Source of the DNA: Octopus sinensis
Lineage: Eukaryota
Direction of reading: 5' to 3'
Length of the DNA stretch: 64,000 nt
NCBI RefSeq assembly: GCF_006345805.1
Contig: NC_042999.1
Location: forward strand, 125,364,001-125,428,000
A program made the translations under genes and the position numbers. The notes beneath the pieces are model-generated. The model worked only from the letters and a program-made list of their open reading frames with translations, did no database searches and had not been told where the DNA came from. Of this stretch, positions 19,469 to 64,000 are shown in pieces. The stretch's first letter is position 1. Every line of letters starts with the position of its first letter.

Positions 19469-21096
19469 TCTGTCCTTTTGCTTAGTCCCTCTTTGCTTCT
19501 CATTTACCTCTACTATATCTCACTTCTAGTCTTACACTAATTATTTCCTCTGGTCTTTTCTTCCCAGAATATCAACTGTAATTCCCTCCTTGACAATGAT
19601 TTTCTTAAAGACATCAAAACTTACAGACATTCAATCTTAATGCAATGCAAACCACATCAGTTTTACCAGTCTCGGAGAGGTTGCAAAGGTCATAAGTATA
19701 GCTCCTTTAACTTGACCAAAAACAAAAGAAAAAGACTACACCACCCAATCCGCTTTTCCCCTCATACAGTATAAGATATATACCTGAAAGAGAGATTTAT
19801 TTGCTATATCAAGCAGGCCACACATTCTTTCTTTGGCTCATATTTTACATTGATTGTGAGCAGCTAAACTGACTAAAACTCAAGAAAATATTATGCACAA
19901 GATTAGAGAGTAATCTCCTCACAGACTAAGACCAACTCTCAGTATTTTAGCGACTATCCTTTAAAGGTTCTGCTAGTTTAATAAAAATCATCTTTTGTTG
20001 TATCACAGAAATAAGTTTCCAAAACCAATTCATATTGATCAGCAACTTTTCTTATAGATATTTTCATGTATGTGCGTGTGTGTATAGATATATAGATATA
20101 GGTAGATAGACAGATAGATATGTGTGTATTCATACACACACACATAATCATCATCATCATCATCGTTTATCATCCGTTTTCCATGCTGGCATGGATTGGA
20201 CAATTTGACTAGGATCTGGGAAGCTAGGAGGCTGCACTAGGTTCCAATCTGATTTAAAACACTGCCAGATCAGATTGGAGCCTGGTGCAGCCTCCTGGCT
20301 TCCCAGACCCCAGTCAAACTAGCCAACCCATGCCAGCATGGAAAACAGCCGTTAAACGATGACGATGATGATGATGTATGTGTGTGTGTATGTGCATGTT
20401 ACACACACACACACACACACATATACATAAATATATGCACACACACACACACATATACATATTCTCACTTGAACTCTCCTTGTCACTAATGTTGTCCAAG
20501 AGAAAAGTATGATAAAAAGTAAAGTTCAGACACTAAAAGGCATCCTGTCCAACACCCTTACAATTCTGCTGAACCATTACTTTAGACAAGTACTTTACTT
20601 TATCAACCCTGAATTTCCAAGGTGAACTGCAGCGGGACTCAACCTAAAACAACATGGCTGGAAAGCAAACTTCTTATCAACACAGCTATGCCTGCACTTA
20701 AAATCCAGCAATACCTCCCGCATCCAATAAGTTAAATAAAAATTGTGTTCAAGGGAAACCACCTCATCTACAGATGAGCCAACAAAGACTTTCACTATGC
20801 AGTCATTTGGCAGCAAGAAATAGCAACTAAATCTCCCTCAAATCCCCTCTTACATATTTTAAAAATGGAATGATATATTAGACAAAGTAGAGATGCAAAA
20901 CAGACAGAATGGTCACTGATAGAACACTTTCAGTCAAAAGTCTACTTAATCAGGATTAAACAATAACTAATCTCATTAATAAATCATTAATAACTCTTTG
21001 AATCATTTTAAGTTGTTAATATAATATTTAATTGGTCATTTAAGAGAATATCCTCTCTCAGAAAAACAATGATCATAACAACAGCTTTGATTGTTC

Positions 21097-35836: not shown

Positions 35837-35910
35837 CATCCCTGGGTGGGCTTGAACCACCAACCTTTCAGCTAGCAGCTCCACATGCTAACTGACTGCA
35901 CTACGGAGCT
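35837..35910 (-). pseudogene. tRNA-Asn(GTT)-derived pseudogene (anticodon position now GCT)
   Basis: 74 nt colinear with eukaryotic tRNA-Asn, including GAAAGGTTGGTGGTTCAAGCCCACCCAGGGA; many differences are CG>TG/CA and the acceptor stem is broken. Confidence 0.8.
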
Positions 35911-44485: not shown

Positions 44486-46325
44486 TAATAATAATAATAA
44501 TAATAATAATAATTGTGTACAGTGCTCAGGTGCACTACAACTCATCTAAAGTGTATATATAATCAGGTGTAGTTTCGGCGGATTTCGGAAAGCATGAGGG
44601 CCTTAAAAGATGCAGTGTCATGGCAGTCAACAACTGACGCAGGCAGTTTATTCCATGCTTCAGCAACTCTGAGCGTGAAAAAATGTTTCCGAAAGTCATG
44701 AGAGCTGTATTGTTTTCTGACTTTGTAGGCATGTCCACGTGTGTTAGACACATGGAGATCAAAAAGGTGTTCAGTGTTGTTGTTGGTGAGGTGGTTGATA
44801 ACTTTGTGGGTGTTTACCAAGTCCGTCGCCAGACGCCGGAGCTTCAGTGAATCCATGCCCAGGGAAACAAGGCGCTCAGAATATGGTAGGTGTCTGATGG
44901 AGGGTATGCGTTTGGTTGCACGTCTCTGGACAGATTCCAGGAGGTCAATGTTCTGTGCAAGATAGGGGTTCCAAACTGATGATGCAAATTCCAAGTGTGG
45001 TCGTACCATAGCTGTATACAGTTTTAAATAGATGGCTGGAGAGCGGCTAACAAAAGACCTGCTGAGTGATGCCAAGACACCCTCGGCCTTCCTGACAATC
45101 TTAGAGATATGCTTTGTCCAACGCAAATCACTGCTGACAGTGATGCCTAGGTCACGCTCGCAAGAGGATTTCTTGATATCAGTGTTGTGGAGGGAGTATG
45201 TGAACGCAGGGTTTTTTCTCCCAAAATGCATGGTGGTACACTTGTCCACAGCCAGTTTCAGTTGCCAGTCTGTGATCCATTGCTGCATTGTGTCTAGGTC
45301 TGATTGCAGGAAAGAGTTGTAGACATCAGGATCTGTCCTCTTGATTTCAAGGTACAGCTTGATGTCGTCTGCATATTTCAATACTGTGGCATTCTTTAAA
45401 TTGGCATCTATGTCGTTAATGTATGCCACAAACAAGAGGGGACCAAGGACAGATCCCTGTGGTACACCCGATGACATCTCATATGGTGTAGAGTGCTGTC
45501 CTAGAACTGTGACAACCTCCTTTCGGCTGAGGATGAAGGATTTCAACCAGTTAAAAAGGTCATCCCCCACACCCATTGCAGAGAGTTTCACCATAAGCCT
45601 TTTGTGTGGCACAGAGTTGAAAGCCTTAGCAAAGTCAAGGTAGACAACATCCACCCATGAGCCACTGTCAGTAATCTGAGTAATGTCCTCAAGGAACTCG
45701 ACAAGCTGGTCACTGCAGCTGGAGTTAGGGACAAATCCATATTGTGAGGGTCGGATGAGACTGTGAGAGCTCCAGAAGTTCCAGAGTGTTTCTCTGACAC
45801 ACGATTCCATCAGTTTTGCAATACAGCTAGTGAGACTGACTGGGCGATAGTTGACAGGTGATGTGCGGTCGCCCTTTTTGAACAGAGGAATGACACTGGC
45901 AGTTTTCCACTGCTCCGGAGTAGTAGCACCATTGTTGAGACAGTACTGGAAGAAAATAGAAAGCTGGTGTAAAAGGAAGTGCCTGCCACGTTTGAGAAGC
46001 AGGTATGTAACTCCATCGAGACCAGGGGAGGCATAGTTGCGCTTATTTTGAAGGTGACGTCGCAGCATTGCAGGTGTAAATTCCATAGTTGTTATGGAGT
46101 TTGCTGTTAGTGATGGTGAAGATGGTACATCTTGACTTTCAACAGTGAATATGTTTGCATAGCACTCGGCAATGAGTTCTGCGCATTCCTTGGGGTCGTC
46201 AGTGATCTGGTTTGTGTGAGGGTTGCGAAGAGGGCCCACTGGAGAGTGAGGTCTCTGCTTTGAGTGCACATATTTCCAGAAAACCTTACTGTCAGGATTG
46301 GCTGCTATGCACTGTTCAAATGTCT
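44486..46325 (-). mobile_element. Young 5'-truncated CR1-clade LINE with an uninterrupted reverse transcriptase frame, antisense in ILKAP intron 1
   Basis: ORF 44563-46416 has NYRPVSLTS, QYGF, YLDFAKAF, SGVPQGSVLGP, YADD, ERDLG, VRPHLEFASSVW, TRGH and WNKLP; (ATT)n tail at about 44486-44513; no endonuclease domain; the first ~30 aa of the ORF look like read-in from flank. Confidence 0.95.
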
Positions 46326-47614
46326 GTCTCTTCACACACACTAACAGAAGCACTTCACTTACACAACATACTGTCTGTCTCCCACACCCCATCAAACACA
46401 CACAGGCCGACTTCAAAGTGAAACCTTCTCGTCGTAAAATCGCTTCCTCTTAGTCTCTTTCGCTCTCATTACTTATGTAAAAAAATAAAATTTTTTTACG
46501 GAAATCGACGGAAATCTGTGCTACTACAACCGAAACTATGCCATTTTAATGACATAGCCATGACCATAAAAACATAAAAATCGTATCTAATGAAGGCAGA
46601 ACCACAGCGCAATTATTCAATGTACATAAACTAAGATCAACTTATTAGCAAACAAACAACATGACTATATATATGTGTGTGTGTGTGTGTATATATAAGT
46701 AGTGCATTTTGTTTGTTTTTCTCTTTTTTTTTCTTTCTTTTGAACTTTCGTTTTAAGATAATCTTTATGTTACCAACATTGTATAATATACAATAGATGT
46801 TTACTCTAAGTGTTTACTCTTTGTGCTGCATAAATGATAAGCACAAAAGATAGAAATATAGTTTGCTTTTACTTATTTATTCACAAGCACGTTCTCAACA
46901 TATCGTATATCAGTAATAAAATTAGTCAAAGAGAAATAACAGCAACAAGTGAAAAATAACAACTTTAAAAAAAAATAGATTGATTATTTCAAAGGATAGC
47001 TCTAATTCCATTGACTGAAGCTTATTATAAATGGAGAGACGGCGATGCTGAGCACTGGGGATCGATGCGGTCAACTTTCTTCCACCCTTTAACATTGCTG
47101 GCTTTGTGCCAAAATTAGAAAGAATTAGTGTTGGTTTCGAATTTAAGCACAAGGACAGCAATTTCAGGGGTGGGAGTAAGTCGATTATATCGACCCCAGT
47201 GGTCAGCTGGTACTTATTTTATCGACTTCGAAAGGATGAAAGGCAAAGTTGAATTCGGCAGACGAATTTGAAAAACATGTCTGGCCAATACTACCTTGCT
47301 TGTAAATATTTTGCCAGCTTACCACTTTACTAAAAAGAATTATTATTGTTATCAAGACGGTGAGCTGGCAGAACAGTTAGAATTCCGGGCAAAAATGCTT
47401 AGTGGCATTTCACCCGTCCGTATTATACGTTCTGAGTTCAAATTCCGTCAAGGTCGACTAGGCGGCGAACTGACGGAATCGTTAACGCACCGAGTAAAAT
47501 GCTTGGCGGCATTTCGTCTGTCTTTACGTTCTGAGTTCGAATTTCGCCGTGGCCGACATTTGCTTTCATCCTTTCGGGGTCAATAAAATAAGTACCAGTA
47601 GAGCTCTGGGGTCG

Positions 47615-47870
47615 ATTATTTACATTTGACGGATATTTGTCTTCATCTTGTTTATTGTTAACACAACGTTTCGGCTGATATACCATCCAGCCTTCATCAG
47701 GTGTCTTAGGAAAATTTCGAACATGGGTTTTCGTTCCTAAGGTATTTTTCGATGTTGTTGCTGTTGTTGTTGTTATTATTATTATTATTATGGTCACTAC
47801 CTGGAATCGAACTCGGAATCTTGGGGTTAAGAGCGCAGACTACTAACCCCAAAATTCCGAGTTCGATTCC
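47615..47870 (-). mobile_element. tRNA-headed SINE-like element with an (AAT/AAC)n linker and a hammerhead-bearing Penelope-like tail; head partly duplicated in inverted orientation
   Basis: B-box GAGTTCGATTCC, microsatellite, then a hammerhead at 47660-47705; same architecture at about 62915-63122 (+). Confidence 0.7.
47660..47705 (-). ncRNA. Minimal type I hammerhead ribozyme motif
   Basis: GACAC-CUGAUGA-A-GGCUG(10-nt loop)CAGCC-GAAAC-GUU-GUGUU; palindromic ACGU stem III of the dimer-forming type. Confidence 0.75.
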
Positions 47871-62416: not shown

Positions 62417-62538
62417 GTAAAAATACTCCATTTTCTTTTCTAAATTGCATTGAAAAATATTAAATAGGAGAGAAAATTAGAATTATATATTAGTAAGTAT
62501 TTTATAACTAATACAGTTCTATATTTGGGAGATGAGGA

Positions 62539-63120
62539 ATTATTTACATTTGACGGATATTTGTCCTCATCTTGTTTGTTGTGAACATGTTTCAGCTGAT
62601 ATACTCTCCAGCCTTCATTAGGTGTCTTGGAGGTATTTCAAACCTGGGTTCTTGTTCCTCAGGTATTTTTTGATGTTATTCTTTTCTACTCTAGGCACAA
62701 GGCCTGAATTTTTTTGGGGGGGGGGAGGGGCAATCAATTAGATAGACTCCAGTATGCAACTGGTACTTAATTTATCGACCCTGAAAGGATGAAAGATAAT
62801 GTTCACCTTGGCAGAGATTGAACTCAGAACATAAAGACAGACGAAACACTGGTAAGCATTTCGCCCAGCGTGCTAACATTTCAGCCAGCTCACCGCCTTT
62901 CACTCTCTGAAATCAAGCTCAATTCCAGGCAGTGACCTGAATAATAATGACGACGACGATGATGATGATGATGTCATCGTTGTCATCGAAAAATACCTTA
63001 GGAATGAGAACCAAGATTCAAAATTTCCCCAAGACACCTGACGAAGGCTGGAGAGTATATCAGCTGAAACATGTTAACAACAAACAAAATGAGGACAAAT
63101 ATCCGTCAAATGTAAATAAT
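62539..63120. repeat. Inverted pair (about 135-bp arms) of the hammerhead-SINE tail, enclosing a family A SINE
   Basis: 62539-62675 is the reverse complement of about 62984-63120; both arms carry gacac-ct(g/a)a(c/t)ga-aggctg..cagct-gaaacatgtt. Confidence 0.85.
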
Positions 63121-64000
63121 GTATTTTATAACTGTATATTTTTTTGGTTATTTTGTACAAGGTCACTTGACTGAAATAAATTAAATTGCCTAATGATATA
63201 ATAAAATTATGCATAGAAGAATTAGCAGCCAGAACTCCTATAAATTTTAAGACATACACATTGAGTGAAAAAAATATTAAGAACAGGCTTGTAAGGTTGA
63301 AACACTAATAGTTCAGTTCAATCAGGGCTGACCTGAGATTAAACATCAATAAATATATATATGTTATTTTGGTTTATAAAGATTTAAATTCAACCATTTG
63401 CTAATTTTTTTTCCATTTCATCTTCAACGTTAATGAGAAAATCGGTTTTACTTTTAGCAGAAGCAAGATATTACTAATTTCAATATCTTATCAGGGAAAA
63501 AAAAAAATCCAAAACAACATGGAATAATACTGGACACTTGCTGTTAAACTTAATGGAATGAATCTGTTAAAAGTATACATCAAGATTTTATTTCAATATA
63601 TAGTTAGTAGTCATTTTATGAAAAACACTGACCTGTTTATAAAATAATGAATCATATAAGAATGCAGTGAAATTCAGAAATTTATAATGCTGTAAGGGGG
63701 AGAGACTAATGTTTCAAGACACTTTTTGTCTGAGAAAAAACATTTTTTTTTCTTCTTAGTCTATCCAAAAACTTAAGATTTACTCTTAATTTCAATTTAA
63801 AGATAGATATCAAAGAATAGAAATTTAAACTTTATTCCAAGTTCGTCTAAATATTCCTTAAACAGAGAGATATTGAATGGGTTTACTAACTTACCTTTAT
63901 TTAATCATTCTTTTTTCTGACTTAGCTATTTCATCACTTCAGACACTCTTAAAGAAATTACATTTCTATGTCACATATCTTGTTTTATCATTTATATGAA

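Follow-up and report, generated by a model that had tools for sequence, protein, structure and literature searches.

The promoters of SINEs normally sit on non-coding parasites. Within terminal repeats, small-RNA-derived Pol III promoters are known from the TRIMp3 elements Cassandra, Helenus and Ajax (PMC10886601), which the accessible text of that paper presents as non-autonomous LTR elements whose autonomous partners are expected to be without such repeats; for LTR partners, it also states that autonomous retroelements are expected to depend on Pol II. In the octopus repeat described here, in contrast, an ORF-bearing Penelope-like element (PLE) itself carries the tRNA-like head.

The closest described systems are the EN+ PLEs of the Penelope/Poseidon type, in particular PAc of Anolis carolinensis (PMC11167929) and Adineta Pen2 (PMC3846280). 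Their descriptions, as far as accessible, share with the octopus element a reverse transcriptase (RT) followed by a GIY-YIG endonuclease, a partial tandem with a terminal repeat (pLTR), an ORF that starts in the pLTR around a hammerhead, two 3' ends about 30 nt apart, inverted 5' copies and a 9-13-bp duplication around the inverted unit. The octopus element differs in its tRNA-derived head with A and B boxes, its microsatellite linker and its solo pLTR pairs outnumbering the ORF copies, none of which is reported in the accessible parts of those two papers.

Two further systems resemble the short form of the repeat. Sm-alpha of Schistosoma, as summarised in the accessible part of a review (PMC6765202), likewise has a Pol III-type promoter followed by a hammerhead, whereas it is tandem and non-coding and the octopus unit is head-to-head and is the terminal repeat of the coding element itself. 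Non-LTR retrozymes (bioRxiv 10.64898/2026.07.22.740005; PMC7229834) are also short, hammerhead-bearing, related to pLTRs and dependent on PLE proteins; the accessible text defines them by head-to-tail arrays and circular RNA and mentions no tRNA head, whereas such arrays are nearly absent here. No description of a tRNA-headed PLE was found in the papers searched, and Repbase/Dfam, subscription papers and supplementary repeat libraries (PMC13282606, PMC8557442) may already contain the family.

Two Insertions in the Window

The window is the whole analysed stretch of 64,000 nt of the Octopus sinensis genome (NC_042999.1, positions 125,364,001 to 125,428,000), and the unit that motivated the analysis lies on its minus strand at 47870-47615. 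An earlier note on this DNA had listed there a B box, a linker, a body, a hammerhead and a 3' part, all of which are present (Table 1), and the inverted head arms that it had pointed out, 47803-47829 and 47844-47870, are identical at 26 of 27 nt. The sense head begins at head position 36, and thus this copy has no A box. Some 45 nt of 3' part follow hammerhead stem I, TTTT occurs upstream of the hammerhead (47709-47716), and neither a tail nor a recognisable target duplication was detected. At the unit, the Rfam scan matched neither a hammerhead nor a tRNA, and ARAGORN with default settings gave no tRNA; the hammerhead was identified by its motif and pairing, and the tRNA by relaxed ARAGORN and alignment with the host tRNA-Ser. 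The window copy is a dead, decayed short copy of a Penelope-type pLTR.

Table 1. Features of the two insertions, in positions of the window.
Feature	Position	Strand	Remark
Unrelated host SINE; the element is inserted in its 3' part	47380..47614	+	16 matches in window
Inner 3' end of the short form, lacking the optional ~30-nt tail	47615..47624	-	presumed inner RT start site
Penelope-type ORF, codons 1-40; open frame	47615..47734	-	ATG changed to ACG here; homologous to N-termini of P0003 and P0004
Minimal type I hammerhead motif, within the coding frame	47660..47705	-	motif and pairing; features as in the accessible part of PMC4209133
Hammerhead stem I, 5 bp	47701-47705/47660-47664	-	
Hammerhead core, plus extra A	47694-47700	-	
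Hammerhead stem II, 6 bp	47673-47692	-	
Palindromic ACGU replacing stem III; GAAAC-GUU; predicted cut 47665/47664		-	
Conserved 20 nt	47735..47754	-	upstream of predicted start codon
(AAT)/(AAC)n linker, 37 nt	47755..47791	-	
tRNA-Ser-like head, 3' half (positions 36-73)	47792..47829	-	B box 47803-47814; without A box
Inverted partial head, head positions 17-62	47825..47870	+	B box 47859-47870; second-arm remnant of a head-to-head insertion, remaining arm missing
Target-site duplication, left copy, 13 bp	62497..62509	+	
Left arm: body, damaged hammerhead, full tail	62512..62680	-	
Unrelated host SINE copy, between both arms	62687..62900	-	
Right arm: B-box remnant, linker, body, damaged hammerhead, short 3' end	62914..63123	+	
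Target-site duplication, right copy, 13 bp	63121..63133	+	

Further copies had been noticed near 62.5-63.1 kb, and these are real, but they are not separate copies: 62539-62675 and 62915-63122 are the two arms of a single head-to-head insertion (62512-63123) bounded by the 13-bp duplication. Since copies within the window share 84-86% identity across 140-145 nt and the body query found 3,857 first-look candidates genome-wide, the unit is not a chance arrangement.

Elsewhere in the window, an open frame of 628 codons (44566-46449, minus strand) looks LINE RT-like by eye. A near-perfect hairpin of about 100 nt occupies positions 20210-20312, and a tRNA-like match at 35837-35910 scores 27.9 bits versus the Rfam cut-off of 29 bits.

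Abundance of the Family and Nature of the Head

The copy-number check that the earlier note had proposed was carried out on the 2.72-Gb genome, where the head query returned 1,569 first-look candidates beside those of the body query. In 100 evenly spaced 10-kb samples (1 Mb), 11 clusters, probably representing 10 insertions, were found, from which about 30,000 short copies are extrapolated for the genome (95% range 15,000-54,000). The copies are about 92% similar to the reference copy. Head and hammerhead body are linked genome-wide, as the note had supposed, the body being present in cis at 27 of 29 head-picked loci and the head at 26 of 28 body-picked insertions. The linker measures 11-697 nt (median 52, 67 arms), its long versions containing later insertions; the (AAT)n linker is a repeated target of other repeats, with insertions of 240-700 nt at six loci (L016, L023, L054, L029, L215 and L228).

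The head contains A and B boxes in tRNA register. With relaxed settings (ps75), ARAGORN reported a pseudo-tRNA, mostly Ser, in 13 of the 42 heads and in 4 of 420 shuffled sequences, the copies not being independent of each other. The head also aligns with the host tRNA-Ser(GCT) gene, minus its variable arm, at a quality reached by 4 of 1000 shuffles; Rfam did not score it as a tRNA. Variation is 6.8% in the A box, 5.9% in the remainder of the head and 3.8% in the B box, so that the B box is the best-kept part and the A box is not specially kept. The head can be read from these comparisons as a decayed tRNA gene derived from tRNA-Ser, with a likely role as promoter. In the hammerhead core, N7 is the sole strongly variable site (T66/A22 among 90).

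Relationship to Autonomous Penelope-Like Elements

A search for the partner element with the Pfam GIY-YIG domain led to Neptune-type and other families, and none of the 61 loci had sequence in common with the tail; the same was true of a further PLE family. The Neptune-type and other families have minimal hammerheads of their own, which share no sequence with the unit. The partner was reached with an RT-motif pattern that we take to be Poseidon-type, which gave 107 matches (control, 0), nearly all of one family. A sense head or body lies downstream of the ORF at 21 of the 30 loci picked on this motif; among loci picked on the ORF end, the head directly follows the UTR, about 45 nt past the end of the ORF, in 28/29; and at 21 of 30 loci picked on the 5' part of the ORF, the body/tail repeat continues straight into the frame. 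The order of the element is thus head, linker, ATG, hammerhead, tail, rest of an RT/GIY-YIG frame of about 830 codons, UTR of about 45 nt, and again head, linker, hammerhead and tail.

From the ATG of the body, the frame stays open across hammerhead and tail and comprises 830 codons in the majority sequence, which shows RT motifs, with RVT_1 matches, followed by an endonuclease motif. The endonuclease region gave no Pfam GIY-YIG match of its own, although it can be aligned with its homologues. Identity to P0004 is 47%, the alignment beginning inside the hammerhead, and the peptide encoded by the hammerhead region is conserved in this protein. Most of the 32 homologues are RT-domain proteins; one of them, from Anolis, shares 34% identity and has an N-terminus that fits the description of PAc, and we infer that it corresponds to PAc. 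The segment joining RT to EN has no CxxC, i.e., no Neptune Zn finger. A metagenome scan with P0004 found no relative. None of the 150 best RT matches has an intact ORF, the longest frame being 646 aa, and the family looks inactive in the present genome.

By this architecture, as read from genomic copies, the unit is the pLTR of an autonomous Penelope/Poseidon-type element, the head being part of the pLTR and the so-called body encoding the N-terminus of the ORF. The tail accordingly has the Penelope homology that the earlier note had proposed to check, as part of this pLTR and of the ORF N-terminus. The separate SINE borrowing a Penelope RT/GIY-YIG that the note had envisaged is not borne out, since the head belongs to the autonomous element's own pLTR (28/29 ORF-end loci) and body, hammerhead and tail are the first codons of its ORF.

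The same follows from a comparison with the defining features of each class. As in EN+ PLEs, a single ORF encodes RT and then GIY-YIG, partial tandems serve as pLTRs (21/30), an inverted, 5'-truncated copy is accompanied by the optional tail (30-40 nt in this class) at one end (31/33), and the pLTR contains a hammerhead motif. As in the Penelope/Poseidon group, RT and EN are not separated by a Neptune/Nematis Zn finger, and homology to the Anolis protein is found. The A/B-box, tRNA-related head of SINE2 is present, whereas the head also occurs in the autonomous partner and the body is coding. The head-to-tail hammerhead arrays of non-LTR retrozymes appear in 1/59 clusters. The repeat would thus be classified as the pLTR of an EN+ PLE, and neither as a stand-alone SINE nor as a retrozyme.

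Insertion Footprints

After duplicate removal, 59 clusters were available, 33 of them with 3' ends on both arms. Two 3' end sites, about 30 nt apart, are used. Of the 33 head-to-head pairs, 31 have a single tailed arm, two have no tail and none has two; 23 are surrounded as a whole by a duplication of at least 10 matched nt (median 12), versus 1.0% of 492 mismatched pairs. The insertions therefore bear the marks of Penelope, as the earlier note had suspected, and the accessible parts of two papers describe the same features for PLEs (PMC8557442; PMC3846280). For PAc, cutting and extension at both strands together with two RT start sites explain such features, according to the accessible text of PMC11167929. 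The thousands of short two-armed insertions could provide a clean genomic test of this in vitro model of two start sites and both-strand priming.

In 24 of 27 pairs, the subfamily letter at N7 is identical on both arms (Fisher P 0.0006), and therefore the arms usually stem from one template type. The more truncated arm was that with the tail in 15 and the short one in 7 of the 31 pairs. A 10-nt near-palindrome that immediately precedes the head often forms the centre of head-to-head junctions, and cDNA ends may anneal or fold back there. A head-to-tail pair was observed in a single cluster.

Two observations concern locus L009. At 1590-1680, a 10-bp stem can be formed in the 3' region, with its 3' strand in the optional tail and the inner 3' end in the loop (z -2.2); this modelled stem may be an RT recognition signal. 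Between 1376 and 1418, a short insertion has caught a piece of the ORF 5' region between its two heads, which implies that its template extended beyond the tail into the ORF.

Hammerhead and Retrozyme Features

The motif resembles the minimal hammerheads of metazoan PLEs, as described in the accessible part of PMC4209133, in that stem I is short, stem II is long, an additional nucleotide stands between 9 and 10.1, and 15.2-16.2 are palindromic; it differs in its GUU triplet and is here a predicted ribozyme. In folding calculations, the open hammerhead form lies 0.6 kcal/mol above a fold that blocks the core. Minimal PLE hammerheads are described, in the accessible literature, as cleaving poorly and as dimers, and anole PAc as inserting from uncleaved RNA, cleavage not being needed (PMC11167929, accessible text).

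These data bear on the proposal of an independent tRNA-headed SINE or retrozyme lineage that would cut and circularise its own RNA and borrow the Penelope protein in trans. In its favour, short copies are far more numerous than ORF-bearing ones, the core of the hammerhead is preserved in the majority of copies and varies chiefly at N7, and Sm-alpha offers a precedent (PMC6765202, accessible part). Against it, the head lies inside an autonomous element, the common variants of the short copies are third-position changes also seen in ORF-linked copies, copies span the cut site, and head-to-tail arrays are restricted to one of the 59 clusters, with no circular permutation seen. Given copies that cross the cut site, few arrays, and insertion from uncleaved RNA in PAc, the retrozyme reading is not supported; nor is the self-processing RNA proposed in the earlier note, no pile-up of read ends occurring at the cut in fragmented libraries, which could miss it. 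An independent origin is largely refuted, and we consider it very improbable.

Which Polymerase Transcribes the Element

Our preferred reading, which we regard as likely, is that the unit is a pLTR with a tRNA-Ser-derived head and that the short copies are made by the element's own RT/GIY-YIG from RNAs started at the head, probably through its Pol III A and B boxes. The alternative is the same element with a Pol II promoter (TATA/initiator or internal), the tRNA-like piece being a passenger captured at the start of the pLTR and the short copies arising by Pol II transcription of the downstream repeat, or as long copies halting at the 5' palindrome.

The A and B boxes stand at tRNA spacing, and a TATA-like run is found about 28 nt upstream, which we count among the hints of Pol III but which would also suit Pol II. 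The promoters known for PLEs are Pol II-like: rotifer Penelopes, which have no tRNA heads, show 5' palindromes and TATA and initiator motifs at the start of the pLTR (PMC3846280, accessible text), and the Penelope of D. virilis has an internal LINE-like promoter (PMC2377424, accessible text). Thus, a pile-up of 5' ends is no proof of Pol III. In addition, the A box is not specially conserved, and a coding RNA normally requires a cap. On the other hand, the head is fixed, with its two boxes in register, at 28 of 29 ORF-end loci, the B box is its best-kept part, and the short form prevails although solo copies lose the TATA run, nothing lying upstream of the head in 9 of 11 random clusters.

T4 runs were counted as a further indicator. 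The majority frame of 2,490 nt has none versus 2.8-4.3 expected (P 0.014-0.03, three shuffles), and T4 is absent from the whole unit in the majority sequence, which speaks against Pol II; three intact Neptune-type ORFs contain 9, 9 and 10. In real copies, the same comparison gives 0.35 versus 1.6-3.7 per kb. A further hint of Pol III is that TTTT at body positions 41-44 was found on both arms in 0 of 39 pairs. However, the ORF of a head-less Penelope-like family of the same genome is equally poor in T4 (0.37-0.40 versus 0.35-0.55 per kb), and thus the scarcity is not specific, a point in favour of the Pol II alternative.

A search of run records listed 20 rows from 10 studies, under four organism codes, and no RNA run among them. 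In three raw RNA runs, reads map in both directions at about 1:1 and track the copy-number profile, the strandedness of the runs not being given; in one run, 8,924 of 12.9 million reads fall on the element. No end pile-up at the head or cut site was seen in these runs, whose fragmented libraries may miss short non-polyadenylated RNA. Run X22, which is labelled as another organism, shows on L009 a diverged variant set with a 30-50% share and a partial head-to-tail repeat supported by 22 reads.

Weighing this evidence, we find the Pol II alternative rather unlikely. That Pol III makes the short RNA seems somewhat probable, and that it makes the coding RNA doubtful. We can only tentatively suggest a coding retrotransposon transcribed end to end by Pol III from a captured tRNA gene, its unit of about 2.7 kb kept free of TTTT and the promoter of its downstream repeat acting as its own SINE factory, a LINE and a SINE in one. 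The element would offer a testable case of a coding RNA transcribed by Pol III.

Origin of the Short Copies

In short copies not selected on the body, two variants reach high frequency (42-45%). Both are third-codon changes, one silent and one Asp/Glu at hammerhead N7, and both segregate in ORF-linked copies. Variants at body positions 44, 47, 101 and 113 were discounted because the query selected for them, the count being redone without body selection, and position 144 was left out of both counts owing to tail-repeat ambiguity; three segmental duplicates and overlapping loci were removed beforehand. Across all body sites, the third-position excess is weak (P 0.057). The common variants being third-position and present in ORF-linked copies, the masters of the short copies are likely coding elements, and some solo copies may act as secondary masters.

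At body-picked loci, 28 of 35 head-bearing arms have their 5' end within -12..+9 of the head start. In the random 1-Mb samples, 4 of 6 head-reaching arms stop at the head and two extend 40-75 nt further, into the UTR; three of the four ORF-5' loci with an upstream head begin at the head. Since some arms continue past the head and include UTR sequence, a fraction of the short copies are plain truncated long copies. The simplest reading of the clustered 5' ends is a defined RNA start at the head, to which plain truncation adds its share.

Under the preferred reading of a head-started RNA, the promoter would be active in both repeats, the upstream one yielding the long coding RNA, and the downstream one, as well as solo copies, a short RNA that retains both RT start sites. 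Judging from the footprints and PAc biochemistry, the protein would cut both strands about 12 bp apart and, with uncleaved RNA as template, prime cDNA at either end, using the outer start site in one case and the inner in the other. Joining of these cDNA products near the self-complementary 5' end would leave two arms in head-to-head arrangement, one of them tailed, and a duplication of about 12 bp. The hammerhead is predicted to be weak, depending on dimers or protein, and would be dispensable for insertion. Because the putative promoter is internal, short copies would keep it, and the repeat would amplify in a SINE-like manner.

If the head is the start signal, a coding retrotransposon could release SINE-like copies of its terminus by the tens of thousands, and the presence of this head on an ORF-bearing Penelope would open a direct path by which a coding element can give rise to a SINE-like family and to repeats like Sm-alpha. 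Annotation is expected to mistake such copies for SINEs, tRNA pseudogenes or intronic ribozymes.

Other PLEs of the Genome

Neptune-type families (L118:1221-3563, L121:1253-3592, L104:2245-4569 and L120) have intact frames of 775-781 aa and are candidates for PLEs now active in this genome. Several of them carry a U3-A8 variant of the hammerhead core about 100 nt before the 3' end and have (TA)n targets. A further abundant PLE family (L193-L212; 8,019 first-look candidates) has a long, repeat-rich 3' UTR, a variant hammerhead, no tRNA head and very few T4 runs in its ORF.
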